From an uncultured virus (IMG/VR IMGVR_UViG_3300043411_001904) (Duplodnaviria > Heunggongvirae > Uroviricota > Caudoviricetes), in the IMG/VR virus record IMGVR_UViG_3300043411_001904: a DNA stretch of 64,000 nt. The stretch is one strand, 5' to 3'. Of the stretch, positions 19,310-62,899 are shown piece by piece. Positions within the stretch are counted from its first letter, which is position 1. Each line of letters opens with the position of its first letter. The notes under the pieces were generated by a model, which was not told the origin of the DNA, did no database searches, and saw nothing but the letters and a program-made list of their open reading frames with translations. Both the position numbers and the translations under genes were made by a program.

Positions 19310-19393
19310 TCCAAGAGGAAGGATTCGAACCTCCGTAAAAGATCCACAAACGCAAATCGTTGTGAAAATTGACTTCCAATAGTCTACTCTCGG
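19310..19393 (-). tRNA. tRNA-like gene with extended anticodon arm
   Basis: CCGAGAG/CTCTTGG acceptor; D and T arms present; TTCACAA..TTGTGGA long arm. Confidence 0.65.
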
Positions 19394-19426
19394 TTAATTA
19401 TAATACAAATATACTAAAAAATAATT

Positions 19427-20134
19427 CTAATCCAAAATTCCATTTGATTTTAATTCTTTAATCACTCCGGATATAGTTCCTTTACTACAATTTAATTCTT
19501 TTCTAATTTCACTCTGTTTCATTCCATTACGATACATATCTAGAACAACATTTCTATCTATTTTAGATCTCAATTCTTTAATATTCGTTGATTTTAATAA
19601 TATTTCTTTCTTGTTAAGTTCAAAGAACTCAAAACTTGAATGTATTTTAATGTGACAATTGGCACATAAAACTACACACTTACTCAGCTCATTAGAAATA
19701 TCTTCACTAATATCCAATATTGATCTTAAGATTATATTAATTGATTTCAATTTGAATTTCTTATCTCTTAAATGGTGAAAATGAAGAGAGCAATATTTAT
19801 CATATCCACACTTCTCACATCTTATAACATTTTTATATTCCAAAAGTATTTTCTTGTTATTTCTCTGTCTATTATTAATTTGATCACCAAAATGTAATTC
19901 ATGATGGCAATTATGACATATCAATTCACATTTCATAATTTCCCTTTCAATAATTGACATTCTATGATTTCTAATATCATTTATATCAAATTCTTTATCA
20001 ATTGGATTAATATGATGAAAGCATAACTTAAATATATCTGATTCTTCACATTTAATACATTTCCCACCCATTGAATTTATTACTTTAATTCTTTTTGCTA
20101 ATTTAAGTATCTTCGTGCTAATAATCTTTTTCAT
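19427..20134 (-). CDS. tandem-HNH endonuclease with C-terminal HTH
   Basis: two CxxC..FHH..C..LCxNCH units; IRKELNCSKGTIS. Confidence 0.88.
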   Translation of the reverse strand: MKKIISTKILKLAKRIKVINSMGGKCIKCEESDIFKLCFHHINPIDKEFDINDIRNHRMSIIEREIMKCELICHNCHHELHFGDQINNRQRNNKKILLEYKNVIRCEKCGYDKYCSLHFHHLRDKKFKLKSINIILRSILDISEDISNELSKCVVLCANCHIKIHSSFEFFELNKKEILLKSTNIKELRSKIDRNVVLDMYRNGMKQSEIRKELNCSKGTISGVIKELKSNGILD

Positions 20135-20188
20135 AAGTTCAAGTCGTTTATCTATATATATTAAATAAATAACTCGAACTTTTTCTAG

Positions 20189-20278
20189 TACCTCAGGTCG
20201 GAGTCGAACCGACAGCGTTTACCACGAGGGTCTGCGCTCCTAAGGCGCAGGTGTTTCATCCAGTTTCACCACTGAGGC
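20189..20278 (-). tRNA. tRNA-Leu(TAG)
   Basis: TGCGC-CTTAGGA-GCGCA; long variable arm. Confidence 0.92.
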
Positions 20279-20287
20279 AAATAAATT

Positions 20288-20427
20288 AGAAATATCTCCC
20301 AACCTCCGCGGTTAGTCAATTATACACACTCATGACTACTAGATCTAGACTCGCGAATCTAGAACCTCACCATGAACACATAACACTCTTACCCACCTGA
20401 TCAGGGTCGTCATCATAAGAGATTTCT
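20288..20427 (-). ncRNA. unclassified rod-like structured RNA of about 140 nt
   Basis: AGAAATCTC..GAGATATTTCT closing stem; TCTAGATTC/GAGTCTAGA apical stem. Confidence 0.5.
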
Positions 20428-20431
20428 TCAG

Positions 20432-20513
20432 TACGTGTGGAGAGACTTGAACTCTCATATCTTTTCAGACACCACTATCTCGAAGTGGCATGTATGCATT
20501 CCATCACACACGT
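20432..20513 (-). tRNA. tRNA-Leu(GAG)
   Basis: CCACT-TCGAGAT-AGTGG (atypical C33); long variable arm. Confidence 0.82.
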
Positions 20514-20521
20514 ATATATTT

Positions 20522-20616
20522 TCCAACGGGAATAGATCCAAATACCCACCATCTTCAGGATCTTCCGTATCCCCATACGGGCGGTCATCTTTTGGAAAAC
20601 CGACATTCCCATTGGA
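20522..20616 (-). ncRNA. unclassified multibranch structured RNA of about 95 nt
   Basis: 12-bp closing stem TCCAATGGGAAT/ATTCCCGTTGGA with internal hairpins. Confidence 0.5.
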
Positions 20617-20648
20617 CTAGGACTAAATTAATAATCCTAGTAATTCTA

Positions 20649-20741
20649 TTAGATCAGTCATCCTCTTAACCTACTGGTTGCCGCAATGTTTACCATCGCG
20701 ACCACCCGGGCTTGAACCGTATTTTCTTCAATGTGATCTAA
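20649..20741 (-). ncRNA. second permuted tRNA-like (Y-RNA-like) RNA
   Basis: TTAGATCA/TGATCTAA closing stem; CGG-TTCAAGC-CCG T-like arm, long hairpin, AGTAGGTTAA D-like loop. Confidence 0.45.
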
Positions 20742-20746
20742 ATATG

Positions 20747-20837
20747 TAGTCCAGGTCGGAGTCGAACCGACAACGTTTAACCTCTTGGGTATGCGATCTT
20801 AAGCCGCACGCGTCTCTACCAGTTTCGCCACTGGACC
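20747..20837 (-). tRNA. tRNA-Leu(TAA)
   Basis: TGCGG-CTTAAGA-TCGCA; long variable arm. Confidence 0.92.
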
Positions 20838-27069: not shown

Positions 27070-27281
27070 TACAATCCCAATTTATCTAACTTAATACCCC
27101 TCAATTTACAAACAATCTTTGATAGATTATTCCCATTCCAAAAACTACATAAAATCATTACTGAAGAGCTAAATTTACCACCACAACAATTACACTCAAA
27201 AATAACATCACCAAGATGATTATTCTGATATAATGGAACCATTTCCAAATTAATACAACAATTAGCACATATTAGAATCAT
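27069..27281 (-). CDS. small Cys-rich protein with C-terminal RxxKL motif
   Basis: CANC..CNCC; LRGIKLDKL. Confidence 0.5.
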   Translation of the reverse strand: MILICANCCINLEMVPLYQNNHLGDVIFECNCCGGKFSSSVMILCSFWNGNNLSKIVCKLRGIKLDKLGL

Positions 27282-28057
27282 ACCTTGACCAAATCAATTT
27301 TATTCCATTTTTTATTAAGAAAATTTAATTTGTTAAGATCAATTCCACAATTGTTTTTCGAAATGTGACCCTCGTTAAAAAGTCTTACCATGTCATCAAT
27401 ACTCAAAATTTGATTATTCTTATCAAAGTTGGGATCAGGGTGTGACCAACCAAGCCTAAAAATCCAATTTAGGATAGCTTTCTTATTATAGTCATTATAG
27501 AATTCCATAGAGCTAGTACCATCCCTCTTAGATATCTTTCGACCACTTTGGAAGAGTAGCCCAGCGTGATGGACATTAGGGAATACTTTACCACCCTCAA
27601 CAGAGGCGATCATATCCCAAATTTTAATTTGCTTTTCAAGATTATTAATATGGTCCACACCACGAACTATATCCGTAATATCGTAGTCATAGTCATCTAA
27701 AATCGAGCAGAAATTATAAGTCGGGAATCCGTTATTTCTGAGAATGACCATTTTATAGTCGCCCATATCAACTTCATACCCCTTATCTGATAGAGTGCCA
27801 ATTTTCTTAGCAACATAAGCATATCTATCCAACCGACTAGATTGTGAAAAGGTAACATCATGATCGAATCCAAAAGATCCCATCATGTTATAGATATAAT
27901 CAATGTGTTCTTTTTTATTTCTTTCTTGATCAGTATCATCTATTCGAAGAATAAAAGAACCATCATTGGACTTAGCCATTAAATAATTAAGAAGAGCTGT
28001 CCGAAGAGTTCCAATATGGAAAAGGCCAGTGGGGGATGGGGCAACTCGTGTTTTCAT
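27278..28057 (-). CDS. gltX: glutamyl-tRNA synthetase-like catalytic domain (GluRS/GluQ-like, truncated)
   Basis: TRVAPSPTG.FHIG, LRIDDTD, GFPTYN, VRGVDH, KISKRDG, LGWS; no anticodon-binding domain. Confidence 0.8.
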   Translation of the reverse strand: MKTRVAPSPTGLFHIGTLRTALLNYLMAKSNDGSFILRIDDTDQERNKKEHIDYIYNMMGSFGFDHDVTFSQSSRLDRYAYVAKKIGTLSDKGYEVDMGDYKMVILRNNGFPTYNFCSILDDYDYDITDIVRGVDHINNLEKQIKIWDMIASVEGGKVFPNVHHAGLLFQSGRKISKRDGTSSMEFYNDYNKKAILNWIFRLGWSHPDPNFDKNNQILSIDDMVRLFNEGHISKNNCGIDLNKLNFLNKKWNKIDLVKV

Positions 28058-28084
28058 TTTACAAATATACAAAAAATTTATACT

Positions 28085-28551: not shown

Positions 28552-28638
28552 TGGGGTGTGAATGGATTCGAACCACCGAAGCCCCGAAGGGCACCCAAGG
28601 TACAACTTGAGCTCTTTTGACCACTTGGATAACACCCC
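28552..28638 (-). tRNA. tRNA-Tyr(GTA)-like with irregular anticodon loop
   Basis: GGGGTGT/ACACCCC; GCCC-TTCG-GGGC variable arm; loop containing TTGTAC. Confidence 0.75.
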
Positions 28639-30731: not shown

Positions 30732-31485
30732 GGGGCTGAGATTATACCCGTTATCGACAAATCTTTTGTGAGATTATGTTTTCCTCACTTATCCACCAAT
30801 GTTGCCACTGGTATCTTGTCAATCTCAGTTACTTGAAGGGTAACCAATCCTATCGTGTGTCCAAACTCAACCATTACTCCATCTATTCAGAAGTGCCCTC
30901 CTGATTCAACCTTGCGGGTCTATAAACTTTTCGTGATCAAAACAACAGACCTTGCGGGTTTATTGTCTCCCAATTTACCAAAGGTATTAGGAATTAGAGA
31001 CCTTTCGGAAATACACGCCACGAGAATTTGGCTTTATTTTATATAATGCAATAAAATTGATTATTGGACGACGCTCTCGTGGAGCAGCTACGATCCTTTT
31101 GGAATCACAATACTACACGCCATCCTATCAGTTCCCTGATGGTCAAGAAGATCTCCGCTAAAAGCGTCATGAATCACACGCACATAGTGCGGGACACAGA
31201 ACACATATTCCACATCGACCAACTAAACTGAAACAAGCATTCTAGAAGTTGGCTTCTATCACACTCAAATCCACAAATCATCTTATAGCCTTAAGCATCA
31301 AACACCACATTTAGGGACATAATCACATCCATAGTATGATATTGAGATCCAAGTCACTTGACCGAGGTTCTCATACCGATTCGCTTATGATTAAACTCTT
31401 TAACAAGTCGGGATTGTTACCCTTTATCCCCGTTACCGGGTATTATTTATTCACATCCGAAGATGTGATGGACTCCATACAGCCC
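30732..31485 (-). ncRNA. large ornate ncRNA, GOLLD-like (about 750 nt)
   Basis: no credible ORF; higher GC; 5' GGGCTG pairs with 3' CAGCCC; many GNRA/UUCG hairpins (CCCGCAAGG twice, CCGAAAGG, CTTCGG); next to tRNA-like genes; family name from size and recalled motifs only. Confidence 0.65.
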
Positions 31486-31591: not shown

Positions 31592-31733
31592 TAGTCTGTC
31601 CAGGATTCGAACCTGATTTTCCGAGTGAAGCTCGGCGTCCTAGTGTGATAATCAACTCAGATCTTCAGACGAGATCCTCAAATTAATCCAACACACCTCC
31701 ATCATAAAGATGGATCCAGTAGACGAACAGACC
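31592..31733 (-). ncRNA. tRNA-Glu-derived RNA with a structured D-loop insertion of about 80 nt
   Basis: GGTCTGTTCGTCTA..TAGGAC; CCGAG-CTTCA-CTCGG; TTCGAAT T-loop; ACAGACT-A. Confidence 0.75.
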
Positions 31734-31761: not shown

Positions 31762-31939
31762 CAGTCTGTATTGGATTCGAACCAATGTTACCAATTAGAT
31801 CGTAACCTAATTAGTGTCCTAATATATTTTAGTCAAACGAGCTCAAGGCTCAGGTCATATAAAAAATTTTATACATTTTAATATAATATATTAAATTTTG
31901 ACCGACTAAAATACATTGGTACCCCTAGACGAACAGACC
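31762..31939 (-). ncRNA. tRNA-Glu-derived RNA with a D-loop insertion of about 100 nt and a tetraloop-capped anticodon arm
   Basis: same 5' GGTCTGTTCGTCTA; insertion closed by TATTTTAGTC/GACTAAAATA; ATTAGGT-TACG-ATCTAAT. Confidence 0.75.
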
Positions 31940-32017
31940 AAGAATATTCAAAGAACATTAACAATACAAATATAAGTAAAAATTTCTGAACTACAAAATA
32001 TTTTTTACTTTTTTTAG

Positions 32018-32104
32018 TGACCCGTTGTGGATATGAACCACAATCCCACATCCCATCTGGTTAACCCAATCGGGAATCTTGTGTCTTGCTTAGACTAACG
32101 GATC
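32018..32104 (-). ncRNA. tRNA-like RNA with extended anticodon arm
   Basis: GATCCGT/ACGGGTC-A; GTCT/AGAC D-stem; TGTGG-TTCATAT-CCACA. Confidence 0.65.
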
Positions 32105-35079: not shown

Positions 35080-36086
35080 AGATTATATATTAGATCAGAT
35101 ATTAATTTTTTTGACTCTACATATCGATTAGACCAATCCCCACCAACTGTAATATACATCTTACAAAATCTCTCTAGATTTGATTTAAGTTCATTAAAAT
35201 GTTCCACTCTACCATTTAGAAACTTTCTTGTGCCATCTTGAACTGAATCACAATTTGGTTCTAATAAAATATATAGATCGTAATCATACGAAGTTATTTT
35301 TTTCGTAAAATATTCTTCGTATTTAATATATTCATCGGGACAATACATTTTAGAATAGGTGTATGTAGTGATATCCTCAGTGTCACAAACTATTAAACCA
35401 TTCGAATATCCAACCAACCAATCTTCCAACTCTTGTCTTCCCTCGGATATGTGATGAAAATCATCTATTTCTAAATTAGGTTTATTTTCCGCAACTAATC
35501 TACCATATTCAGGTAAAAAATTTGTATTAAAATATGAAGCAAGATTTTGAGTTAAATAACTTTTACCAGTTGATTCAGGACCAACAATAGCGACCCTTTT
35601 GACAAAAAAGGGTCTAATTTGATCCGATATGAATCTCCAATTTTTAATTGGATTGTTTCTAATCATCGTCCCGGATATAGGATATTTTCTACGGTCCTTA
35701 TCAACTAAAAAATGATCAATTCCTAAATATCTAGCAAAGTCATCACCATAGTCCTCAGAAGTAAAAACAACATCTAAACTTTCAACAATTCCATATACAA
35801 CAGGAACCCACAAGGAATAAAATTCATCTAGAGAATTAGATTCTTTATCACTTTGTGGTAATCCGGTATCATCAAAGATATAAACAGTAACATTTGTGTT
35901 ATCTTTATAAATCTCCTTTATACAATTAAATCTCAATTCTCCTGGAATCCATTGACTTGAATTATGACATATAACAATGTGAGTATGATCACTATATTTT
36001 ATAGCGGTGTCAATAAGATATAAATGCCCCAAATGTGGGGGCATTGCTTTCATTAATACTAATGAACTTCTATATCTTTTCTCCAT
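35076..36086 (-). CDS. nadR: NadR-type NMN adenylyltransferase / ribosylnicotinamide kinase
   Basis: PPHLGH, FTSEDYG, ISGTMIR, GPESTGKS, PEYGR, CDT. Confidence 0.9.
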   Translation of the reverse strand: MEKRYRSSLVLMKAMPPHLGHLYLIDTAIKYSDHTHIVICHNSSQWIPGELRFNCIKEIYKDNTNVTVYIFDDTGLPQSDKESNSLDEFYSLWVPVVYGIVESLDVVFTSEDYGDDFARYLGIDHFLVDKDRRKYPISGTMIRNNPIKNWRFISDQIRPFFVKRVAIVGPESTGKSYLTQNLASYFNTNFLPEYGRLVAENKPNLEIDDFHHISEGRQELEDWLVGYSNGLIVCDTEDITTYTYSKMYCPDEYIKYEEYFTKKITSYDYDLYILLEPNCDSVQDGTRKFLNGRVEHFNELKSNLERFCKMYITVGGDWSNRYVESKKLISDLIYNL

Positions 36087-36589
36087 TTAAAGAACCCAAA
36101 TACACAAATTATCAGGAATATAAAATATACTGCACTAGACAACCATAGTTTATTTTCAATGAAGAGAAATATCATAAATACATCACAAAGTATCCAAAAT
36201 ATCCAAGACTCAACCTTTCGATATATCATCAAATAAGATCCCAACAAACTTAAAGAACTTGTTAAAGAATCTAAAGTAGAATTGCTACCATTAAAATAAT
36301 TAGATATAAAATACAAAGCACCCCACATCGGAAAAACTATCAACAGAGTCCACCTATTACTTAAATAGGATATCTTTTCATTCGAAACTGTACTCCACCT
36401 AAACCAACCAACCAAAGATTGAACAGCAAATACAACTTGAATAGACATATTTATCCAATCCCTAGTATTCTGAAATATAATAAAGTAAAAAAATATACCA
36501 ATCAATCCCATTGGCCAATACATTACACTAGACCTATAGGCTAAAATGACAGCTGCCAAACTAAATAGAACCGCAAATATTTCTATCAA
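36059..36589 (-). CDS. pnuC: PnuC-family vitamin (nicotinamide riboside) transporter
   Basis: multi-TM; WPMG, GWFRW, LDS..SL.G.YLM..KVESWIFW..D. Confidence 0.88.
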   Translation of the reverse strand: MIEIFAVLFSLAAVILAYRSSVMYWPMGLIGIFFYFIIFQNTRDWINMSIQVVFAVQSLVGWFRWSTVSNEKISYLSNRWTLLIVFPMWGALYFISNYFNGSNSTLDSLTSSLSLLGSYLMIYRKVESWIFWILCDVFMIFLFIENKLWLSSAVYFIFLIICVFGFFKWRKDIEVH

Positions 36590-36590
36590 T

Positions 36591-38711
36591 TTAACTAATA
36601 TTGAATTTTAAATTCACAAAATAATTTCTCGTGGATCCGGGATAATATTGTCCTAATCTAAATCCATTTCCTGTCAACACTCCACCCGGTAACAAGTACT
36701 TTTGGTCCAAAATGTTATTGACTAATAAACCAATAGAAAAATTCTTAACTCTAATATCACATGTAAAGTTAGAAATATAATATGGACTAGTTGATAATTC
36801 ATCATCTTCCTCATTATTTAAATACATTTTACCAACATACATTCCATTCAAACCAATTTTAACTCTATTACCATATCTCACAAAATTATTCATAGTAAAG
36901 TTTGGTGAAAATGAAGACTTCCCAACTCCCCTAATCTCCGCATTTAAGTATGATCCATTAATTCCAAAATACCAATTTCTATAAGAGTACTCAGATTCAA
37001 TTTCTAATCCATATCTGTGACTCCTATCGGCAATTTGTCGAATAGGTAATCCATAGATATTATCAAACCCAATAATTAATCTTTCATTTCTAATATCCAT
37101 GTGATAAAAATTATAAGACATAGAAAACCTATCTATCCTTGATGTAATATCAAATTTATTGCCTACTTCAATATTAGTAATTATCTCTGGTATAGTATTG
37201 GGAAATATTTGATACAGATTAGGACTATTCAAATTTGATTCTCCAAGATAATCTGAATACATTGATTCCCCATTGATATAAACATTATCATTGGTATCAA
37301 ATAAATCAGATCTAGTGACTTCTCTACTAGTTTGACCAAATGACACCCAAGACTCATTACTGTCTCTAATTCGTTTAATTCCAAATTTTGGATTGATAAA
37401 GTCCCAACCATAATTTACCTTAGACCCATTCTCATCAGTGTATATAAAATCAACACCTCTGTATTGAATATCAGCAAATAATGAATAATCATTAGCTTTG
37501 TATGAAAATCGACTATATGCAATAACATCTTCCTTATTTCCAAAATTAGAATATCTCAAGGTATCTAAAGAAGATAAGTTATGCTCCCTCTGATAAATAT
37601 TATAATTTATTCCAGTATTGATGCTCAATCTATTTTTACTCCAAACCATGTTTGACATACCACCGCCTTGATAGGAAACTATTCCATATTTACCATATCC
37701 ATCTAGATTATAATAACCATTAACATTATTAAAATATATCGAAGAATTAAACACTATATGCGATCCCGTCGAATTTATCCAATTTAAAGCAGCAAAATTC
37801 TGACCAAATCTATCTCTATCATTTGGAGAATTGAAATTAATTCTATAGTTCTGATTTAGGGATTCCTTATCAATCGGAATATATGATAGATCGTTCATAG
37901 ACATACCACTAAACCCATATAATTTCAATATGTTCTTTTTATTAAAAAATCCTAATTGCCCAAAATAATTATACCCATCCGATCCAGAATTTTCTCTAAA
38001 TCCATCAGTTTGTAAATAGTTAAGACTAGATGAAAATGCAACTTTACCCAATAACCCAGAAGAGTACTCCAAATATGTTGAATTGGTCCCGAATGATCCA
38101 AGTCCAATTTGACCAATTATCTCACGATCTAAAATAGATTTTAATTCCATATTCACAGACCCAACGACAGATGATGTGCCATACTTAGACAACCCAACTC
38201 CACGAACAATATCCATCCTAGAGACTGAATTATAAAATCCAGGCATATTGCTAAAATAAATTCCCTGATCTTCCATTTCATTCATAGGAATTCCATTCAA
38301 AGTAAAATTAATTCTAGTCTGATCCATTCCTCTCATTCTTAAATATGAATACCCATATTGGGATCCGTTGTCTGATTGAACAGTCATGTTTGGGACTTTT
38401 CGACTAAGAGTAAAAAATGGATCTGATCCCGCGTTTGATACATCACGAACCGAATCAGATTCAATTGTCGTTATTGTAACTGGATCGGATTTAGTTGGTC
38501 TTATACCAATAACTTGAAATTCCACTAAATCCATCTCTTGAGAAAATGCGAAATTAGAAATTAGAAACAATAAAAGTAATATCCTTCTCAACTTGCGTGA
38601 AATATCATATTTTAGTCGATTTAAAGATATTTCTTTTAATTTTTTCAAAGTTGGAACAATGTCATAATACCTACCATTGAAAATATATGCATCATAAATT
38701 TTAGTGCTCAT
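36591..38711 (-). CDS. TonB-dependent outer-membrane receptor
   Basis: signal-like LRRILLLLFLISNFAFSQ; plug motifs RMRGMDQTRINFTLNGIPMN and VRGVG; C-terminal NNILD..YYPG..RNYF. Confidence 0.88.
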   Translation of the reverse strand: MSTKIYDAYIFNGRYYDIVPTLKKLKEISLNRLKYDISRKLRRILLLLFLISNFAFSQEMDLVEFQVIGIRPTKSDPVTITTIESDSVRDVSNAGSDPFFTLSRKVPNMTVQSDNGSQYGYSYLRMRGMDQTRINFTLNGIPMNEMEDQGIYFSNMPGFYNSVSRMDIVRGVGLSKYGTSSVVGSVNMELKSILDREIIGQIGLGSFGTNSTYLEYSSGLLGKVAFSSSLNYLQTDGFRENSGSDGYNYFGQLGFFNKKNILKLYGFSGMSMNDLSYIPIDKESLNQNYRINFNSPNDRDRFGQNFAALNWINSTGSHIVFNSSIYFNNVNGYYNLDGYGKYGIVSYQGGGMSNMVWSKNRLSINTGINYNIYQREHNLSSLDTLRYSNFGNKEDVIAYSRFSYKANDYSLFADIQYRGVDFIYTDENGSKVNYGWDFINPKFGIKRIRDSNESWVSFGQTSREVTRSDLFDTNDNVYINGESMYSDYLGESNLNSPNLYQIFPNTIPEIITNIEVGNKFDITSRIDRFSMSYNFYHMDIRNERLIIGFDNIYGLPIRQIADRSHRYGLEIESEYSYRNWYFGINGSYLNAEIRGVGKSSFSPNFTMNNFVRYGNRVKIGLNGMYVGKMYLNNEEDDELSTSPYYISNFTCDIRVKNFSIGLLVNNILDQKYLLPGGVLTGNGFRLGQYYPGSTRNYFVNLKFNIS

Positions 38712-44528: not shown

Positions 44529-44856
44529 TATTCAAAAAATTAATCACAACTATATAATAAGAATGATTATTTTCTCAGCATTTTTATACAAGTCTGATAT
44601 AAAGAACCAAGACCAATATCAAAAAAATGTTCAAGAATTTATCTCTAAAAAATTACCCAATATTGAAGTAACTATATCCTCAATTAGTTTATCAAAAGAT
44701 GAGTTTAGGGATATGACTCTAGATAAAATTCTATATGATGAAGAGTCTAATATTTCTGATTTTATAGTCTTCAAATTCAAAACTTCTATTAAGGAAGTAA
44801 ATTTACAAATAGATTTAGGAAATCCAGATAAATATGAATTATTCCTATATGCTTAA
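44521..44856 (+). CDS. hypothetical protein
   Basis: internal FRDMTLDKIL. Confidence 0.5.
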   Translation: MLDIQKINHNYIIRMIIFSAFLYKSDIKNQDQYQKNVQEFISKKLPNIEVTISSISLSKDEFRDMTLDKILYDEESNISDFIVFKFKTSIKEVNLQIDLGNPDKYELFLYA

Positions 44857-47800
44857 ACAGCGGTTATTTCTTCGATCGACATAATGATAGGACCCACAAT
44901 AGCGTTTCTACGTATCATCATCAAATACCTCTGACCGGAAGTAATATTAGCTGGTAAAGTTACACTAGATTGCTTTTGCCAAGTACTGCTCGTCCAAGTA
45001 AATGCATGTGTACCACTATCCCCAGTAAATATAACCCAGTTCATGGTTGGACCAACGCTTCCAGTTGAAAACTTCACTGTTGCATCAGCGCTTATTGTAA
45101 TTGCTAAAAATGGAGTAGATGTGCCCAAATTAAGTGTTAAATCACCAGGGGTACTGTGTGTGGATACGGTCGTATCCTCTATCACAGGTCTCTGAATCTG
45201 CATATTAATGCTCCCAGTATTTGCACCAGCACCCAATACACTTGAGAGAGAAGGAGCACTACCCACACTAGTACTAACTGTGTACCAAGTTCTAAAATAT
45301 CTAGAATCGCCACCATTAGAATCGAATATATCAGGACTAGCAGATACACAAGAAAGATAAAAAAGCCAATATGATGGGATAGGCTGCTCAAGATGTCCTA
45401 TTGTATAAACACAATATTGACCATTCATAAATACCTCTAGATACATCACTCTACTACCCACGCTATAAGCATTGGTAAGTATATCATTCCATATACTATC
45501 TCTATCCACACCCAATTGATCAAATTGACTAACAACCATCTCAGTTACAGAAAGTGGGTTAGGATCATTTACTGAAAAATTACCAGATCCTGGATCAGTT
45601 GATGTATCAAATGTGCTATACAAAAAATATGGAAAGCCACCCTGTGGTGGGGATCCATATCGATTAAGTTCTTTCATATCAGATTTAATCTCCCCAATTT
45701 CAGATTGAACAGATCCAAGCGAATCGGATGGAGACACCACTCCATAAGGCGGGAACGAAACTACTGTTGGAGCTGGATCAGGCCCACTATCAACTGTCCA
45801 TTCTACAACACGGTCTGGAGCAATGACATTTTCAGTACTTGAAAAAATCAACACTCCACCATGGTATATTTCCCATTGAGATCCACTCCAAGAAACATCA
45901 AATGCATTAATAAAGGTTGGGTCTGTACCGCCCTGATACCAACGACCCCTACCATTTAGATCTGTGTATTTAGGATATACGCCTCTCCAAGTTGGTACAG
46001 TTGGAGAATTTCCTTGAAGATGAATGGCCTCTAACATATTAATATCATATCCATCAAGAACAACAGCTGGTCCTGTATTCCCATTCACACTCACCACACT
46101 AGATACGCCTTGAAATCCTTGAATACCAGTAGACCCTGTTCCACCAGATGCTCCTTGGAAACCTTGATTACCTTGGAAACCTTGAATACCAGTGATTCCT
46201 GTTCCTCCCTGGAATCCTTGATTACCTTGAAATCCTTGAAATCCAATCGGTCCCTGGAATCCTTGTCTTCCTTGGAATCCTTGTCTTCCTTGCAAACCAA
46301 CAGCTCCTTGTCTTCCTTGTCTTCCTTGTACCCCCGTCACACCATCTCTTCCTTGGAATCCCTGAAAACCAGTAGCTCCTTGAAATCCTTGACGACCTTG
46401 ACTACCAGTAGAACCAATACCCATCTTAACAAACGAAATAGAACAATCTTCTAAAGCAGTAAATGACCCCTCAGAAGAAATTAAAGTATAATAATAATCA
46501 ATAAATGTTGATTGATCTATAATCGAATCAACTTGATAGATTCTAAAAATTTGATGATCAGATTTACTAACAACAGAAATATAATCTCCAATTGAAATGG
46601 ACTCTACCCAAGTGGTAGCATCAACTCCAAAGCTGGCTGTTTTGGAGATAGATAAAACTGTTCCAGGAGTTGGCCATGGCTCAAGGTCGATACAGAAATA
46701 TCCATATGGACTTGGAAGAGTTGTCAATGCAACTGATGAATATGTCCATCCCAGACTATTAGACCCATCGACTCCCATAAATCCTTGAATACCACGAAGT
46801 CCTTGAATTCCCTGTGATCCTGATCCACTAGATGAAAAAGTACCAAAGTCCGCAATATTTAAATATCTAACATTATGATCTGTGTCTCTTATTAATACTT
46901 GATCAAAATCAATATCCTCTTGTCTAGCTCTTTCAATATGTCTTAATTGCAAATAAGGAACTGAGTGTCTAACATCAGTTGTCATTTCCCCAAACAAACT
47001 AATATTCTCATACCCATTATCTACATGAGTACCATAGGAATAAATAACAGCAGGATAAGTAGAGAGTGTTGCTGAGATCGATGATCTTTCCGCAACAGAC
47101 TCAACAATACATTGATGTAGGTGGATTGATGTCGCTAATCCTAGTCTAACAATTCCTCGAACAACTTCACCTCGATATAAGGTAAATGAACCACCAACCA
47201 AAACTCTATTATCGGGCTGAACTTCAATTGCATTAACAATACCATTTCCAAAACCACCATCAAAATCATCTAGTAGATTTCCATCCGAATCTAATTTAAC
47301 AATTCTACCAACAGGTGTTCCATTAAATTCAGTAAAAGCACCACCAATCAATAAATTGCCATAATTATCTTCCTTTATACAATTAACATTTCCATTAAAT
47401 CCTGTACCAACATTTGTGTTAAATGTCAAATCAACATCATATACTGGATCTAGTTTTATAATTCGAGTAGCAGAATATGTAACCCCACTAATACCATATA
47501 CAGTAAATTGACCCCCAATTATTGAAGAGTCATCAGTCACTGACGGATGCCCATTGAATAAGTGATAACATAAAGCACTACCATTAAATCCTTCATCAAT
47601 AGATGGATCAAATATTCTTGTATAAACACCCATTGGAGTCAATTCAACAATTCGATTTGTATCGGTAAGATAAACAGCTGGATGAGTGTAATAGTGATTT
47701 GATTGAGTGAAATGTCCAACTACCAAAATATTACCGTCAGTTCTAACGCCACCAACAATTGCTGTTGAGTTGGGTTGATTAAACCTCATTCCTGATAATG

Positions 47801-50513
47801 AACCAGTATTACTAGGGGTACCAAATCCTGATACCACAGATCCTGTAGATGTATGTAGTCTCAAAATCGGACTTACAGCATCTGTATTTTGATATCCTCC
47901 AACTAAATATCTTCCACTCTGATCAACATCAAAGAAAGTTACACTCTGTATAGCCCCAAATGCCGAATATTGCTGCTGTAAAAAGACATCATCTTTCTGA
48001 TCATTTTCATTAAATTTATAAATTCCTCTTCGAGACTGACTAGATGAATTATTACCAAAAAGTATAGAATTATCATTCTCATCCAAATGCAAGAACCCAA
48101 TTGGTCCCAAGCTTATTCTAGTTGGCTGGTTTGGACCAGCTGGATCATCCACGGTTGGGAAAGCCGGAGGATATCCTTGATAGAAAGCAAATTGATCCAA
48201 AACTTTATCAAATTTAAAATCTCTAGATCCATCATTGTAAACTCTATACAATGATGGAAGTTCTAATAAACCATTTGCAGAGTATGTTGACCCAACAGTA
48301 TGATATCCAACAAATGAGTCATTATAATAATCAAATGACCCACCCAAATATATTCGATCACCATCTGGATCCATAAGTATCGTAGCAACAGAAACAGAAG
48401 TTCCAACGCCCGACTTAAAACTAGTATCCCTTAGATATCCAATCCCCTCAGAATCGATTATTATCGGAATTCCTGGAGATATGTTAGTATTACCAAAAAC
48501 AAATGTTTGATCCAATGAGATAATTGTTCGGCTAAAATGAATATCAGATTCAGTTACTCTATAATATAAAACACTATTTGTATGTGTCAATCCTCGTGGA
48601 GCCACCAATCTAGCAAACCCTGATACATCATAGGCCATTCCCGAAAATGTACCTAGATTTCTATCATAGTCCCCAAATAACCAATTATGCCCATCGATAG
48701 CTGTTACACCAGTTGTCAAACATTCAACAACAACGCCCTCACTCAAACTCCAATCAACACCATCTTTACCTAGCATATAGTCATTGGAATAAGTACCAGG
48801 TCTTACATTAATAGTATCTCCCCAAAGAGCATCTTCTTGAGCAGCATATAATGTCAAATATGGAAGATCGAATCTTTCGGGAGTTCCTAAGATATCATTT
48901 CCATAAACTGAATCAACCCATAGTTGTCGACCAGTAAAGCTACTGCCTGTAGGTCCAACTTCTCCCTGTGGACCACCAAATGGTCCTTGTAGCCCTGTTA
49001 TTCCTTGAATACCTTGATATCCTTGAATACCCGTTGATCCTGTTGATCCAGATCCTTGGAATCCTTGTAATCCCGTTGATCCCTGGAATCCTTGGAATCC
49101 TTGATACCCTTGGAAACCTTGGAAACCTTGATATCCTTGGAAACCCTGAACACCCGTTGCGCCTATACCAGCAAATTCACCATCTATTCCCTGTATTCCC
49201 TGAATACCAGTAGGTCCAATTAGACCCGCTGGACTAACCGTAGAATCTACCGGAACAGCAGTACTAACAGTTGGATTACCAGGATAGCATAAATTCAATA
49301 ACTGAAGAACATCAGGATCATAGGATGTTGATGGTGTAGGACCAACGACTAAATGATATCCATAATACGGACCTATATAAATAATTTGCCCTATCGATGC
49401 CCATGATGAATTTTGAACAGCTAACGAGAATGTTTCCCCACATGGAGGAACTGTATTTCCAGTTGTTATTGTATATGTAAAAGCATTTATTCCACTTGCT
49501 CCTTGACCACCACTTGAACCAGTCGATCCTTGGAATCCAGTATTACCTTGGAATCCCTGACGACCTTGGTATCCTTGGAATCCCTGATCTCCGGTTGGAC
49601 CACCCCAGAATGTTGCTCCGGTTGGGCCCATATATCCTTGGAATCCCTGATCTCCGGTTGGACCACCCCAGAATGTTGCTCCAGTTGGACCTGTAAATCC
49701 TTGACGACCTTGATATCCTTGAAAACCCTGTCCACCAGTTGATCCTGTAAATCCCTGAATACCAGTATTACCTTGAATTCCAGTATTACCTTGATACCCC
49801 TGAACTCCTTGATCTCCGGTTGGACCACCCCAGAATGTTGCTCCAGTTGGACCAGTAGATCCATAATCACCCTGTCTTCCTTGAAGACCTTGAAATCCCT
49901 GAAGTCCTGTATGTCCAGTAATGCCAATCCCCGGAAGACCTATAGTACCGATTTCTCCTTGGAAACCTTGGAAACCGATAACCCCTTGTCTTCCTTGACG
50001 ACCCTGGAATCCCAAATCTCCCTGTGATCCCGTAATAGAAGCACCTTGGAATCCACGATCACCAACTCCTTGGAATCCCTGACCTCCCTGAACGCCAATA
50101 TTTCCTTGACGACCTTGAAGTCCTTGTATTCCTTGACGACCTTGAATACCTTGACGACCTTGAATGCCATCATTTCCTTGGAATCCTCTAAGTCCTTGTA
50201 TTCCTTGACGACCCTGGAATCCTTGATGACCCTGAACACCAGTAGCTCCTAAAGGAATTGACTCAGATAATTCAATTGCATATCCAACCAAATTCCACAA
50301 AGTCCAAAGAGGATCTCTAACAGCTTGAGCCGTAATAAAGTTTGTATTATTATCAGGCAATCGATCAACAACCTCTGCCCAATTACTAAAAGTAGCACCA
50401 GAATCCCATTTAAATCTAGACCAAAATGGACTACCTGATGATAGATAGTCAGTATTGGTATTATTGGAGGGTCCGGTTGGGCCTACAGGAAAATCTAGCG
50501 GATCTAAAGGCAT
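44853..50513 (-). CDS. giant collagen-repeat fibre protein with beta-propeller-like repeats
   Basis: 1886 aa; long G-x-Q runs; repeated ILVGGxFT..RIVKL..D units. Confidence 0.8.
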   Translation of the reverse strand: MPLDPLDFPVGPTGPSNNTNTDYLSSGSPFWSRFKWDSGATFSNWAEVVDRLPDNNTNFITAQAVRDPLWTLWNLVGYAIELSESIPLGATGVQGHQGFQGRQGIQGLRGFQGNDGIQGRQGIQGRQGIQGLQGRQGNIGVQGGQGFQGVGDRGFQGASITGSQGDLGFQGRQGRQGVIGFQGFQGEIGTIGLPGIGITGHTGLQGFQGLQGRQGDYGSTGPTGATFWGGPTGDQGVQGYQGNTGIQGNTGIQGFTGSTGGQGFQGYQGRQGFTGPTGATFWGGPTGDQGFQGYMGPTGATFWGGPTGDQGFQGYQGRQGFQGNTGFQGSTGSSGGQGASGINAFTYTITTGNTVPPCGETFSLAVQNSSWASIGQIIYIGPYYGYHLVVGPTPSTSYDPDVLQLLNLCYPGNPTVSTAVPVDSTVSPAGLIGPTGIQGIQGIDGEFAGIGATGVQGFQGYQGFQGFQGYQGFQGFQGSTGLQGFQGSGSTGSTGIQGYQGIQGITGLQGPFGGPQGEVGPTGSSFTGRQLWVDSVYGNDILGTPERFDLPYLTLYAAQEDALWGDTINVRPGTYSNDYMLGKDGVDWSLSEGVVVECLTTGVTAIDGHNWLFGDYDRNLGTFSGMAYDVSGFARLVAPRGLTHTNSVLYYRVTESDIHFSRTIISLDQTFVFGNTNISPGIPIIIDSEGIGYLRDTSFKSGVGTSVSVATILMDPDGDRIYLGGSFDYYNDSFVGYHTVGSTYSANGLLELPSLYRVYNDGSRDFKFDKVLDQFAFYQGYPPAFPTVDDPAGPNQPTRISLGPIGFLHLDENDNSILFGNNSSSQSRRGIYKFNENDQKDDVFLQQQYSAFGAIQSVTFFDVDQSGRYLVGGYQNTDAVSPILRLHTSTGSVVSGFGTPSNTGSLSGMRFNQPNSTAIVGGVRTDGNILVVGHFTQSNHYYTHPAVYLTDTNRIVELTPMGVYTRIFDPSIDEGFNGSALCYHLFNGHPSVTDDSSIIGGQFTVYGISGVTYSATRIIKLDPVYDVDLTFNTNVGTGFNGNVNCIKEDNYGNLLIGGAFTEFNGTPVGRIVKLDSDGNLLDDFDGGFGNGIVNAIEVQPDNRVLVGGSFTLYRGEVVRGIVRLGLATSIHLHQCIVESVAERSSISATLSTYPAVIYSYGTHVDNGYENISLFGEMTTDVRHSVPYLQLRHIERARQEDIDFDQVLIRDTDHNVRYLNIADFGTFSSSGSGSQGIQGLRGIQGFMGVDGSNSLGWTYSSVALTTLPSPYGYFCIDLEPWPTPGTVLSISKTASFGVDATTWVESISIGDYISVVSKSDHQIFRIYQVDSIIDQSTFIDYYYTLISSEGSFTALEDCSISFVKMGIGSTGSQGRQGFQGATGFQGFQGRDGVTGVQGRQGRQGAVGLQGRQGFQGRQGFQGPIGFQGFQGNQGFQGGTGITGIQGFQGNQGFQGASGGTGSTGIQGFQGVSSVVSVNGNTGPAVVLDGYDINMLEAIHLQGNSPTVPTWRGVYPKYTDLNGRGRWYQGGTDPTFINAFDVSWSGSQWEIYHGGVLIFSSTENVIAPDRVVEWTVDSGPDPAPTVVSFPPYGVVSPSDSLGSVQSEIGEIKSDMKELNRYGSPPQGGFPYFLYSTFDTSTDPGSGNFSVNDPNPLSVTEMVVSQFDQLGVDRDSIWNDILTNAYSVGSRVMYLEVFMNGQYCVYTIGHLEQPIPSYWLFYLSCVSASPDIFDSNGGDSRYFRTWYTVSTSVGSAPSLSSVLGAGANTGSINMQIQRPVIEDTTVSTHSTPGDLTLNLGTSTPFLAITISADATVKFSTGSVGPTMNWVIFTGDSGTHAFTWTSSTWQKQSSVTLPANITSGQRYLMMIRRNAIVGPIIMSIEEITAV
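49586..49850. repeat. three direct repeats encoding GPTGATFWGGPTGDQG
   Basis: gatctccggttggaccaccccagaatgttgctcc at about 49586, 49649 and 49811. Confidence 0.85.
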
Positions 50514-52362: not shown

Positions 52363-53103
52363 ATGGTTGAATCTATGCTTAAGAAACTCGAATGTTTCAA
52401 TGACTCAAATTTTAAATTCGATCCCTCCCAACATAAATACACATATGATGGGAAAACATATACATCTGTAACTCAATTCATTCAGCAATTTCATAAAAAA
52501 TTTGATCAAGAATATTGGTCAAAAAAGAAATCCGAAGACAGGGGTATCTCTCAAGAAGAGATTTTAAAAGAGTGGAAAGATAAAAATGAGTATGCTAATT
52601 TAGTAGGAAGTGAAACTCACCAATGGATAGAAGACTATTTCAACGGAATACATAAAAAAATACCAACAAATTTAGATATTGTTGATCGAATAAATAAATT
52701 CAATATTATTTATGCTAAGGATATTCACAAACTAACACCTCTAAAATTTGAAACAAGAATATTTTCAAAAAATTATCCGATAGCAGGAACCATCGACTCA
52801 CTTTTCCTATATAAGAATAATCTTATAATATTTGACTATAAAACGAATGGTAAGTTCACAAATGATGAACATATAGATGGAAGATGGGAAAATCTATTGG
52901 ATCCATTTCAAGATATATTCCGTAATCACCTAAACGAGTATTCAATTCAAGTATCATTATATTCTTTGATTCTACAAGAGTGGGGATTTGATGTTAGAGC
53001 ATCATACCTATTACACATAGGACCAACTGAGGATCCAAAAATCTATAAAGCTCACGATTTCAGAAATAGACTTGATACATATATGAAAAATTATAATTGG
53101 TAA
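52363..53103 (+). CDS. PD-(D/E)XK (Cas4/lambda-exo-like) nuclease
   Basis: SVT, GSETH, E..AGTID..DYKT, YSIQVSLY. Confidence 0.85.
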   Translation: MVESMLKKLECFNDSNFKFDPSQHKYTYDGKTYTSVTQFIQQFHKKFDQEYWSKKKSEDRGISQEEILKEWKDKNEYANLVGSETHQWIEDYFNGIHKKIPTNLDIVDRINKFNIIYAKDIHKLTPLKFETRIFSKNYPIAGTIDSLFLYKNNLIIFDYKTNGKFTNDEHIDGRWENLLDPFQDIFRNHLNEYSIQVSLYSLILQEWGFDVRASYLLHIGPTEDPKIYKAHDFRNRLDTYMKNYNW

Positions 53104-53132
53104 ACTTTATAAAAAATAATCATAGAAAAATC

Positions 53133-53621
53133 ATGAAAATATTTATAGTAAATTTCGAGCAAATCATAAAAAATTATACACCATATCAAAATTCTTCCAA
53201 GGAAATTGAAAATGAGAAAAATAAATTTACCAACAGAGTCCAAGAAATCAAAAATGAAATGGAGACAATCGTCAATTCATCAAGGCTTTTAGTACTTGAC
53301 CAATCTCTAAAGGAACAAAATGGATTAAAGCTAAGAGAACTTCAAGCAGAGGGAATGAAACTTGAATCAGAATTCAGGTATATGATATCTCAAAAACAGA
53401 ATGAGATTCTAGAAAAAAACTTCTCTGAAATTTCTGATATTGTTAAAAAATGGGCTACTGACAACAAAGCAGACATTGTATTAAACAATAACTCTATAGT
53501 ATTCTCAAAGGAATCTCTAGATGTCACTGATAAAATAGTAGACATATTAAAGAAAGAGAATCTATATTCAGAGTGGATCGAATCAGAAAATTATGCTGAG
53601 GTATCACAGGAATTAAATTAA
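53133..53621 (+). CDS. OmpH/Skp-like coiled-coil chaperone lacking a signal peptide
   Basis: IVNFEQIIKNY..coiled coil..IVKKWA..ADIVL..LDVTDKIVDIL. Confidence 0.65.
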   Translation: MKIFIVNFEQIIKNYTPYQNSSKEIENEKNKFTNRVQEIKNEMETIVNSSRLLVLDQSLKEQNGLKLRELQAEGMKLESEFRYMISQKQNEILEKNFSEISDIVKKWATDNKADIVLNNNSIVFSKESLDVTDKIVDILKKENLYSEWIESENYAEVSQELN

Positions 53622-60912: not shown

Positions 60913-61263
60913 ATGTTAGTTCAAAATTTGGATATTTCACAAAAAGAATTACTAACCGAAGAAATAAAATCATCATTTCCTCTAATAATTTGGAATAAGA
61001 TTTCTAAAGTTAAACCACTTCTAAAGCCATACAGAACTATCTTACTCACTCTAACAATGCTAGGCTTTATAAACTATCTATTTTTTCTAAAATATCCTGT
61101 ATTTATATGGATAAATCTCATTGCTTGGATACCTGGTGTTGTTTTTGCATTTTTTGCAGCCCCATTCCACATAATGACTGGGAAAGTTCTAAGAAAGCTA
61201 TCTAAGAAATATAATGTTAATTTAATATCTCTTCAAGAGTACGCTCATAATACTCTTAACTAA
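60913..61263 (+). CDS. membrane protein
   Basis: two TM segments; TAATATATA upstream. Confidence 0.55.
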   Translation: MLVQNLDISQKELLTEEIKSSFPLIIWNKISKVKPLLKPYRTILLTLTMLGFINYLFFLKYPVFIWINLIAWIPGVVFAFFAAPFHIMTGKVLRKLSKKYNVNLISLQEYAHNTLN

Positions 61264-61750
61264 GAGAATAGACTTTATCAAATCCTTCTTCATATGATAT
61301 AGTTTGGTATGATGATATCATATTTTTGATAACATGGGATGGGATAGTTTTATTCTCTTCTCCTGATCTTTTATCGTTTCGCCTTTGGTACTCACCATCA
61401 CTAAGTATGGGAAAGATAATAGCTATTTTTCGATGATTTTTAAAGTAAGATAGATTTTGAATCCTTCTCTTTCGAGTCATATGTGTCATATCAACTATAG
61501 CATTTTTTGAAGAAGATCCAACCTCAACCAATTTTTTGGTCAAAACTCTATCAACTTCCTTCTGATTAACTGACTTAAAAGCCGAATTATAATCGTCTTC
61601 CCCATGAATATCAACAACAATTTGATCCCGAGATATTAATTCATATTCCGAGGGTGAAAAGTTCTTATTGATCCAAGATGTTTTTCCACTTAAAGGGGGT
61701 CCAATCATTATTAACACCCAAGGCTCCTTTGATTTAATTTCTTTTACCAT
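61256..61750 (-). CDS. P-loop kinase (polynucleotide kinase-like)
   Basis: IGPPLSGKT, ISRD, IVDMTH..RR, EGFD. Confidence 0.85.
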   Translation of the reverse strand: MVKEIKSKEPWVLIMIGPPLSGKTSWINKNFSPSEYELISRDQIVVDIHGEDDYNSAFKSVNQKEVDRVLTKKLVEVGSSSKNAIVDMTHMTRKRRIQNLSYFKNHRKIAIIFPILSDGEYQRRNDKRSGEENKTIPSHVIKNMISSYQTISYEEGFDKVYSLS

Positions 61751-61754: not shown

Positions 61755-62060
61755 TTATATATTATTTGACTTTAACTTTGTCTTATAATGCCTTCCATTA
61801 GATTCTCTATAAAAATATAGTTTTTTATCTTTAACCTTACTATAAATTGACATTAGATGATTTCCTTTTAGACTACCCCAAGTAACAGGTATTATTTCAT
61901 CTTCACAATAAATTAGACCCTTACCAATTCTATCAATCTTGGATTTTCCATATTCAATCGTTTCATTGAAATAAAAAAATCCCTTGTGATCGAAATGATT
62001 TGACACATTCAACCACATTCTAATAATTTTAGAAACTAAATAATGTGAAATTGTACTCAT
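61755..62060 (-). CDS. hypothetical protein
   Basis: 101-aa ORF. Confidence 0.55.
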   Translation of the reverse strand: MSTISHYLVSKIIRMWLNVSNHFDHKGFFYFNETIEYGKSKIDRIGKGLIYCEDEIIPVTWGSLKGNHLMSIYSKVKDKKLYFYRESNGRHYKTKLKSNNI

Positions 62061-62073
62061 TCTATTTTATTAA

Positions 62074-62318
62074 ATAACTCAAAGTGACCTTAGCCTCGAT
62101 TCTGTTTTATGAATACATTTATCTCATCTTTCGATGGTTAGATTTCTCTAACTGCCTCTACCCAACCTCACAGGGAAACCGACACCCTCAGTTTGTTCGA
62201 GTTGCCACTTCCTTAGTAATATCGACTGTTTAGGTCTCCTAAGTTAGGTTTAGTGGTCAAGAGCTTCCTCTAATTGAATTAAAATTCAATCAGCGTATTC
62301 TTATCCTTTTCAAGTTAT
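62074..62318 (-). ncRNA. rnpB: minimal RNase P RNA (about 245 nt)
   Basis: P1 ATAACTTGAA/TTTGAGTTAT; GAGGAAGCTCTTGA pairs with ACAGAATCGAGGCT (P4 with bulged U); AGATAAATG; P2 GAATAC/GTATTC. Confidence 0.85.
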
Positions 62319-62356
62319 AATCATATTTAATGGATTTGAGCACTAATATATAAAAT

Positions 62357-62899
62357 ATGTTCATTTTAACCAAAAAAAGCTTAGAAGATTATTTACTGAA
62401 ATTTAAAATCCCAATAAGTGAATGGGGAAGTGGAAGCTCCAAAACAATAAACCATCTTCTAAAAGAAATAATAAGAGGAGAGACTAAGCTAATAGAAGAA
62501 AATAATGATTTAATTAGAGAAGTAAGTGCTCTATCTATAATAGTAACATATAAAAATTTAATACTAAAAGAAGATTATCAAGAGTTTAATGATGGTCGAG
62601 TACGAAGAAGAAAAATGGAAGCCTCTGTGGCTGAGAAAATGGACAAGAATGACAAAAATATAATTGAAAGTGTCAAAAGAGGAATCAAAGAAGAGCTAGA
62701 TATTCATATTGACAGTGGCCAAATTTCTCAATTGGATGTTATATCTACCAACAGAGAATCAATGAGTTATCCAGGAATAATGTCAAAAATAACTCTTCAC
62801 AAATTCCACATTGAATTAGATGAAAACCAATTCAATCCAGATGGATATGTAGAAGTACAAGAAGATAAAAAAACTGTCTTTAAATGGATAAGAAAATAA
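62357..62899 (+). CDS. NUDIX-like hydrolase
   Basis: AEK..ESVKRGIKEELDI..SYPG. Confidence 0.65.
   Translation: MFILTKKSLEDYLLKFKIPISEWGSGSSKTINHLLKEIIRGETKLIEENNDLIREVSALSIIVTYKNLILKEDYQEFNDGRVRRRKMEASVAEKMDKNDKNIIESVKRGIKEELDIHIDSGQISQLDVISTNRESMSYPGIMSKITLHKFHIELDENQFNPDGYVEVQEDKKTVFKWIRK

Follow-up and report, generated by a model that had tools for sequence, protein, structure and literature searches.

Can a phage carry a gene for its own ribonuclease P (RNase P) RNA? The question is raised by the record IMGVR_UViG_3300043411_001904 of an uncultured virus (Caudoviricetes), of which a stretch of 64,000 nucleotides (nt), referred to here as the window, was analyzed. RNase P RNA, which trims newly made transfer RNAs (tRNAs) at the 5' end, is among the few ribozymes common to all cellular life, and phages have, to our knowledge, been assumed to depend on the RNase P of the host for their tRNAs. 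In the window, the spacer (62061-62356) between two divergent open reading frames (ORFs), 61755-62060 on the minus strand and 62357-62899 on the plus strand, is occupied by a miniature RNase P RNA gene of 245 nt, which runs on the minus strand from 62318, its 5' end, to 62074. Judged by comparison of sequences, this is very probably a phage gene whose RNA derives from the bacterial type A, and the RNA most likely works as RNase P.

Fold and conservation of the RNA

A first-pass annotation of the DNA had placed the element at 62074..62318, with the strand left unnamed. When the best terminal helix around the core was sought blindly, the result was exactly these coordinates, on the minus strand, and the terminal helix (P1) is present in every member of the family described below, with differing sequence. 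The folding energy of the minus strand (z -2.09, versus -0.90 for the plus strand) is a modest signal by itself. A plus-strand ORF of 49 amino acids (62084-62233) was set aside as an explanation of the locus, since the substitutions found in relatives preserve the RNA helices of the minus strand.

Everything that the annotation had listed within about 245 nt, namely P1, P2, P3, a P4 pseudoknot with a bulged U and the conserved 3' motifs, is present. The RNA also holds P5, a P6 pseudoknot, P7, the elements P15/L15/P16/P17 and two GAAA-capped hairpins, which go beyond that list (Table 1). Together with the conserved regions CR-I, CR-IV and CR-V, these elements follow the order of the bacterial catalytic domain. 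The helix names and the consensus strings of the conserved regions are those in general use for RNase P. The correspondence of the elements to RF00010, the Rfam model of the bacterial type A, rests on covariance-model alignments, in which CR-IV of the relatives aligns to AGAugAAU and their CR-V region to ...aACAGAACCCGGCUUAc. The consensus of CR-IV is AGNNNNAU.

Relatives are found in viral and metagenome DNA. A blastn comparison with phage records gave one partial match, in the 642-kb uncultured phage LR756502, which is a true relative; an exact 17-mer from the block shared with it led to 10 viral loci, and a degenerate pattern led to 48 viral, at least 120 cellular-genome and at least 118 metagenome loci. 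A screen of 298 records required CR-I at the correct offset, the bulged U and at least seven of the eight P4 pairs, formed with the bases next after an RCARRA motif. The 74 matches that passed represent 47 distinct RNAs, all of them from viral or metagenome contigs or from the window itself, and none of the at least 120 cellular-genome loci passed; in the DNA searched, the family is restricted to phages and metagenomes. Its members are 186-279 nt long with P1 trimmed to 8 base pairs (bp), and the length of P3 is highly variable among them.

The structure of the RNA is under purifying selection. The covariation set consisted of the 47 sequences and of 44 pairs in P2, P4, P5, P6, P7, the stub hairpin, P15, P16 and P17; P1 and P3 were left out, as the alignment is ragged there. 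Standard pairs fill 95.9% of the cells, compared with 70.0% after column shuffling (none of 500 shuffles reached the observed value) and 28-42% in registers slid by 1-3 columns, and the covariation score is 0.703, compared with 0.185 in shuffles and 0.06-0.10 in slid registers. Changes on both sides were seen in 33 of the 44 pairs, for a total of 527 cells with such changes.

The individual elements repeat this pattern. P4 is 99.5% paired, with six of its eight pairs changing on both sides and the U bulge present in 47 of 47 sequences; its pairedness is partly by construction, and the identity of its covarying bases is not. All five pairs of the P6 pseudoknot, which no screen used, form in every one of the 47 sequences, and four of them vary on both sides. 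In P15, P16 and P17, nine of 11 pairs change on both sides, the first P16 pair failing in seven sequences and the first P17 pair in eight; a fifth P5 pair is formed in 11 of 47 only. Within L15, the bases GG (62162-62161) are invariant and U62160 is nearly so, neither having been part of the search pattern, and three bases of CR-IV (G at position 194, A at 199 and U at 200) are the same in all 47 members. The third pair of the small hairpin enclosed by P7 switches between C-G, U-A and A-U among relatives; much of the sequence of this 22-nt stub, like the GCAA of J5/15, was set by the search pattern. The insert at the P18 position, taken up in the window by the two GAAA-capped hairpins, measures 25-37 nt in 21 members and 2-4 nt in the other 26. 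Both hairpins are regarded as structural because a relative from a public contig (about 86-90% identity) carries a compensatory change in each stem (62133/62128, C-G to U-A; 62150/62139, U-A to C-G).

To break the circularity of this sampling, a covariance model named R1 was built from 34 relatives with the window excluded. It matches 62080-62311 on the minus strand with 155.9 bits (E 5.5e-33), a match that covers all 200 model positions, and the next-best match in the 64 kb has an E of 3.8. As a positive control, R1 matches five of five phage records, and each of the five large phage records holds exactly one copy of the RNA. None of 120 cellular-genome loci (of the at least 120) gave a full-length match, and nothing was found in the five cellular genomes and the 151 genomes of one phylum that were searched, with 16 candidates scored per genome in the larger search and with full-size rnpB escaping R1 when the fast filter is on.

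A second set of at least 120 viral loci came from a pattern that covers the opposite end of the RNA (CR-IV to ACAGAA). Among those listed, 23 have a true CR-I/P4 core, corresponding to 20 distinct sequences, of which one (L402) is doubtful. All 23 span 105-243 nt between CR-I and the end of P4, within a search that reached 420 nt upstream; in the rnpB genes examined this distance is about 300 nt, which none of the 23 attains. A stub of the window type occurs in one of these 23 members, and the others have GAAA- or GAGA-capped stems or insertions of 60-100 nt in place of the small hairpin, inside a constant frame of P7, GA, hairpin, G-N5-A and P7'. R1 matches 15 of the first 80 loci of the second set in full length, with E from 3e-13 to 5e-38.

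Some viral contigs hold unusual members. L009 has two tandem RNase P-like copies, both on the minus strand; the upstream copy shows CR-I, the 5' strand of P4, P5, P7 and the stub, its 3' half is apparently missing (no ACAGAA), and it may be a truncated duplicate. The stub of L399 contains an insertion of about 100 nt with a tRNA-like T-arm (GGUUCAAAUCC), and L375, which R1 matches at 74.6 bits, has a differing reduced layout, apparently without the P16-P17 hairpin.

Kinship with bacterial RNase P RNA

According to the alignments, the RNA is homologous to the type A RNase P RNA of bacteria. In a permissive Rfam scan of 27 family loci, 14 align with RF00010 or RF00373 over the entire model, end to end, apart from the deleted specificity domain (S-domain), at 27.8-61.3 bits and E from 1e-4 to 1e-15 (39.6-57.8 bits for RF00010, 27.8-61.3 for RF00373); the Rfam alignments of relatives delete about 140 model positions at the S-domain. 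In the reverse direction, R1 was run with filters off on 13.5 kb around the rnpB genes of four cellular genomes. The best match there aligns R1 from end to end with one rnpB (20.5 bits, E 8e-4), which has a 160-nt S-domain where the phage model has 39 positions, and a second rnpB was aligned at the right place, non-significantly (11.1 bits, E 0.09). The RNA has two features of type A, namely the P6 pseudoknot and an arm of P15-L15-P16-P17 with an invariant GG(U). A role of the P15 loop in binding the tRNA 3' end has been described (PMC3299987; PMC8172020; here and below, papers cited by such numbers are cited for the portions of their text that were available).

That the element is a minimal RNase P RNA encoded by a phage, too small to hold much of a specificity domain, is borne out by the covarying and complete catalytic domain, the 22-nt stub, the S-domain-deleted alignments to RF00010 and RF00373 and the phage-like character of the window. 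It is filed as a new structural variant, and not as an ordinary member of the type, because the specificity domain, which is a defining feature, is missing. With the bacterial type A (rnpB or M1 RNA; RF00010, 367 model positions) the phage RNA shares the order P1-P2-P3-CR-I/P4-P5-P6-P7 ... J5/15-P15-L15-P16-P17-(P18)-CR-IV-P2'-ACAGAA-P4'-P1', the bulged U in P4, the P6 pseudoknot and the GGU of L15. It differs in the 22-nt stub that stands for P8-P14, in an optional P18, in scores below gathering and in being a phage gene, of which the searched cellular genomes yielded no copy.

P8 may survive in the stub as a relic. Its RF00010 consensus form is a hairpin of 5 bp that follows the 5' strand of P7 immediately and has the loop UAACg; the stub hairpin of the window takes the same position and, drawn as a 4-pair stem, has the loop UAAAC, and it is this resemblance in position and in a loop beginning with UAA that suggests the relation. 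P8 is described as the docking site for the P18 loop (PMC5839562). Readings of the stub as a kink-turn or as a T-loop were rejected by eye, the former for want of tandem G-A pairs in the right register and the latter for want of the U...A spacing in the loop.

Other reduced or virus-encoded RNase P RNAs are known. The archaeal type T of Thermoproteaceae (Pyrobaculum; Lai et al. 2010, cited in PMC7191817) likewise has almost no S-domain, works with archaeal proteins (PMC13462272) and, in the available text of the P finder paper, is reported from Thermoproteaceae only. Unlike this archaeal RNA, the phage RNA bears the bacterial P6 and the GGU of L15, and the type T model is the best clan match of no family locus in cmscan, which keeps the best clan member only; the phage RNA looks like a reduction independent of type T. 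Engineered RNAs consisting of the catalytic domain (C-domain), such as Eco CP RPR, also lack the S-domain, rely on a P6-like contact and are independent of P18 (PMC5839562; PMC11143913), and they are active with or without protein at lower efficiency (PMC11143913). Those RNAs are laboratory deletions, whereas the phage family is natural, under selection and keeps P7 together with a small conserved stub. RNase P RNAs of candidate phyla radiation (CPR) bacteria resemble the phage RNA in scoring below threshold and in lacking helices such as P12, P13, P14 and P18, but they are cellular, keep most of the S-domain framework, and none is described in the available text as having a stub in P7 (PMC8172020). 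Finally, the camelpox RNase P-like RNA is a virus-encoded relative of RNase P RNA (PMC3001073). Its virus is one of eukaryotes and the RNA is akin to the eukaryotic one, in contrast to the phage RNA with its bacterial catalytic core; host RNase P activity in infected cells dropped by only about 20%, and a decoy role was discussed (PMC3001073).

No description of a phage-encoded RNase P RNA was found in the literature searched, which largely excluded subscription journals and supplements. The available text of the P finder paper contains no mention of phage, virus or viral, and that of the huge-phage paper contains none of RNase P or ribozyme. Since standard Rfam thresholds miss every member of the family, phage genomes have been annotated without this RNA, which leaves a gap in annotation.

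Function and competing explanations

From this structure we infer as follows how the RNA cuts, what it cuts, which protein assists it and what the phage gains. The catalytic domain (P1-P7 and P15-P17 with the P4 and P6 pseudoknots) would dock the acceptor stem of a precursor tRNA (pre-tRNA), the J5/15 adenosines would be placed at the cleavage site, and the GGU loop of L15 would read the tRNA 3' end. The catalytic metal ions would be bound in the core formed by P4 and its bulged U, and the 5' leader would be removed. Substrates would be the pre-tRNAs of the phage and perhaps of the host. As the specificity domain, whose conserved regions ordinarily bind the T-loop/D-loop elbow of the tRNA by stacking, is cut down to the 22-nt stub, binding would rely on the acceptor stem, the leader, the 3' end and the protein subunit, with no measurement of the elbow; from the missing S-domain, the loss of elbow reading is a reasonable inference. 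The phage would gain an RNase P capacity of its own for its 23 or more tRNA genes.

RNase P function is made plausible by deletion experiments. Bacterial C-domains without an S-domain cleave pre-tRNA with or without protein, at reduced affinity (PMC11143913), and the isolated C-domain of Escherichia coli needs a "P6-mimic" and not P18 (PMC5839562), which is matched by the family, where P6 is found in 47 of 47 members and a P18-like insert in 21 of 47.

The protein subunit would be the host RnpA in the case of the window phage, and at least one relative would pair with an RnpA encoded by its phage. LR756502 encodes, in addition to the RNA, an RnpA homologue (PF00825, 52.4 bits versus a cut-off of 22.3) that contains RAVDRNRVKRLMRE, which would fit the RNR motif known from RnpA proteins. 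Upstream of this gene, beyond two short ORFs, a further ORF (L298:332-991) gives a weak match to the head domain of poly(A) polymerases and CCA-adding enzymes (17.4 bits, below the cut-off), and this region may be a small tRNA-maturation gene cluster.

The 23 tRNA genes of the window, called by ARAGORN and all on the minus strand, look by their sequences like ordinary bacterial RNase P substrates. The T-loop reads TTYRA in 20 of them and GG stands in the D-loop area of 21, 18 reach the Rfam tRNA gathering score in the permissive scan, and 19 of the 23 leaders have U at -1. In all 23, a C follows the discriminator, and the next base is A in 14 and T in 9. The first-pass annotation had proposed an elbow-independent ribozyme suited to D-loop-modified and D-armless RNAs. 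Such an adaptation is not supported by these tRNAs, most of which have regular T- and D-loops and gathering-level scores, nor by the occurrence of the same family beside ordinary tRNAs in many phages. Placement in tRNA arrays is frequent: a tRNA gene lies within flanks of 300-400 nt in 14 of 46 relatives, always on the same strand and at most 30 nt away in 10, and the other 32 have no tRNA in the flanks, as in the window. A few additional flank tRNAs were found by Rfam and missed by ARAGORN.

Five perfect canonical T-arm hairpins of 5 bp (TTCGAAT/TTCAATT) lie on the minus strand outside the called tRNAs. Rfam calls no tRNA at them at E<=0.5. Possible identities are fragments of tRNAs and tRNA-like RNAs of an unusual kind; no link between them and the RNase P RNA was seen in the analyses of the window. 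The mitochondrial mode of ARAGORN, used for D-armless tRNAs, made 38 calls, many within coding regions, and was judged unreliable.

Several observations weigh against an origin from type A RNA and a function as RNase P. Rfam finds no RNase P RNA in the window at gathering score, nor at E<=10 in 61900-62500; all 14 matching family loci stay below gathering (100 bits for RF00010, 84 for RF00373), and 13 of the 27 loci have no RNase P match in the permissive scan. A search with RNase P covariance models, named in the first-pass annotation as a check, came out in favor for the relatives, at scores below gathering, and against for the window itself. The reverse test is weak, with one of four rnpB genes matched significantly and two not recovered by R1. 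Invariance at positions fixed by the pattern (GGAGA..AA..TCG..AC..A..GCAA) or by the screen (CR-I, the bulged U and most of the P4 pairing) is partly by construction, because the relatives were gathered that way. No RnpA is present among the 82 ORFs of the window, and RnpA (PF00825) is absent from four of the five large phage records, two of which are rated complete, for which reason the protein partner of the RNA is assumed. The nearest tRNA gene is about 30 kb away from the RNA in the window, and the 23 tRNA genes all lack an encoded CCA, the expected target of L15. A scan of the minus strand for a sigma-70-like promoter or an intrinsic terminator found none, and the public sequencing runs with the gene are DNA or of doubtful type and have it in contigs only.

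Other explanations of the locus account for part of these data. It is barely credible that the gene is a functionless fragment of a host rnpB picked up by the phage. The type A origin is clear and about a third of the molecule is lost, as decay would have it, but the helices have been kept across 47 versions through hundreds of compensatory changes, the boundaries of the deletion are clean and conserved inside P7, the second, independently gathered set holds miniature forms only, and five of five large phage records have a single copy; covariation already contradicts this explanation. Very unlikely, too, is a decoy that cuts no tRNA precursors and sequesters the host RnpA or another RNase P partner, thereby starving the tRNA maturation of the host. 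RnpA binds near CR-I, CR-IV, CR-V and P2-P4, and these regions are fully kept; the four large phage records without an RnpA of their own would also suit a decoy. Yet a decoy has no need for the invariant GG(U) of L15, the J5/15 adenosines, the bulged U or a strict P6, and phages need tRNA maturation for their own arrays, where the RNA often sits. LR756502, moreover, encodes RnpA as well, and a holoenzyme is favored over a decoy for this reason.

A change of task is an unlikely alternative of another kind, as it keeps the ribozyme active: its main substrates would be tRNA-like or other structured phage RNAs, or transcripts of tRNA arrays from which it releases itself. Loss of the elbow-reading domain should relax the choice of substrate, and there is a precedent in pre-4.5S RNA, for which an intact S-domain is not needed (PMC11143913, a 2024 review). 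The T-arm hairpins outside the called tRNAs, on the tRNA strand and with two of them near a GOLLD RNA, would be candidate substrates, and the close neighborhood of the RNA and a tRNA gene in 10 of 46 relatives would agree with self-release. However, no test ties a candidate substrate to the RNA, Rfam calls no tRNA at the extra T-arm elements, the L15 and J5/15 that have been kept serve ordinary pre-tRNAs, and the called tRNAs are ordinary-looking. An RNA working as RNase P on pre-tRNAs is preferred to all of these.

If the RNA is active, it would be natural evidence for what a minimal bacterial RNase P RNA consists of, with P6 always present, P18 optional and the S-domain dispensable, as in the deletion experiments. 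It would also add a ribozyme to the translation toolkit of large phages, which includes tRNAs and synthetases, and, where a phage RnpA is present, perhaps an entire holoenzyme of viral origin. The natural sequences make the in vivo contribution of the specificity domain directly testable. A wider interpretation, which is possible and at present rather doubtful, joins these points: phages would have evolved a class of RNase P without elbow recognition, LR756502 would encode a complete viral holoenzyme, the stub would be a P8 relic that docks the P18-like GAAA loop, and the relaxed enzyme would also process tRNA-like RNAs. If this were true, the family would be a second, independent natural "minimal RNase P" beside the archaeal type T, and viruses would have their first known catalytic RNase P RNA.

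Surroundings of the gene in the window

The window is phage-like, with genes for an exonuclease, a lysozyme, PhoH and tail-fibre proteins. It also has four aminoacyl-tRNA synthetase genes and, between the tRNA array and a lone tRNA-Gly, a GOLLD RNA (RF02032). The coordinates of these features and of the elements of the RNA are collected in Table 1.

Table 1. Elements of the miniature RNase P RNA, further features of the window and the RnpA gene of LR756502
Feature	Position	Strand	Remarks
P1	62318-62309/62083-62074	-	10-bp helix from the terminal-helix search
P2	62300-62294/62117-62111	-	7 pairs, 91-100% paired, 6/7 changing on both sides
P3 hairpin	62293-62270	-	10 bp, 4-nt loop; from sequence and minimum-energy fold
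CR-I (GAGGAAG...) and P4 5' strand	62257-62270; P4 strand 62265-62257, bulged U 62262	-	
P4	62265-62257/62099-62092	-	8 pairs
P5	62256-62252 with 3' strand in 62202-62209	-	4 good pairs
P6 pseudoknot	J5/7 62251-62247 with P17 loop 62180-62176	-	5 pairs
P7	62243-62239/62216-62212	-	5 pairs, 97.4% paired, 4/5 changing on both sides
22-nt stub enclosed by P7 (replaces P8-P14)	within 62212-62243	-	GA, 3-bp hairpin 62236-62224, 7-nt tail
J5/15 GCAA	within 62202-62209	-	aligns to GCAA of RF00010
P15	62201-62199/62158-62156	-	98.6% paired
L15 internal loop	GAACA opposite GGGUA 62163-62159	-	
P16	62193-62190/62167-62164	-	94.1% paired
P17	62188-62185/62175-62172	-	95.2% paired
Two GAAA-capped hairpins, P18 position	62152-62137 and 62136-62125	-	from sequence and fold
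CR-IV / J18/2 (AGAUAAAU)	62124-62117	-	
CR-V: J2/4 with ACAGAA (62105-62100) and P4 3' strand (62099-62092)	62092-62110	-	
Tail-fibre proteins	44856-50513 and 3156-4313		first: E 7e-84, partly from collagen repeats
Aminoacyl-tRNA synthetases	6651-10451 and 27281-28072	-	methionyl-tRNA synthetase (MetRS), 236 bits; class II Asp/Lys/Asn type, 204 bits; weak Arg-like; 264-amino-acid Glu/Gln-type catalytic domain
tRNA genes	11136-20837; tRNA-Gly 32017-32104	-	23 in all
Suppressor-type tRNA	14894-14971	-	anticodon UUA
tRNA with irregular anticodon loop	19079-19149	-	
T-arm hairpins	14358-14374, 17680-17696, 28561-28577, 31600-31616, 31770-31786	-	two just upstream of the GOLLD RNA
GOLLD RNA (RF02032)	30733-31125	-	252 bits, E 1.6e-70
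P-loop kinase	61259-61750	-	AAA_33; PHROG "polynucleotide kinase", E 3e-13
TonB-dependent receptor plug-domain protein	36594-38711		host-like
NMN (nicotinamide mononucleotide) transporter	36062-36589		host-like
OmpH-like chaperone	53097-53618		host-like
RnpA homologue of LR756502	L298:1435-1803, near 525 kb		about 90 kb from the miniature RNase P RNA of LR756502

Among the tRNA genes of the window, nine of 23 are 82-92 nt long, one is of the suppressor type and one has an irregular anticodon loop. The C that they share after the discriminator and the T at -1 are striking at a G+C content of about 30%. Two genes downstream of the RNase P RNA, on the same strand, lies a P-loop kinase gene, the product of which may be an RNA-repair enzyme. 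The three host-like genes of the window, which are of the envelope and transport kind (Table 1), hint at a Gram-negative host, perhaps one of the Bacteroidota.

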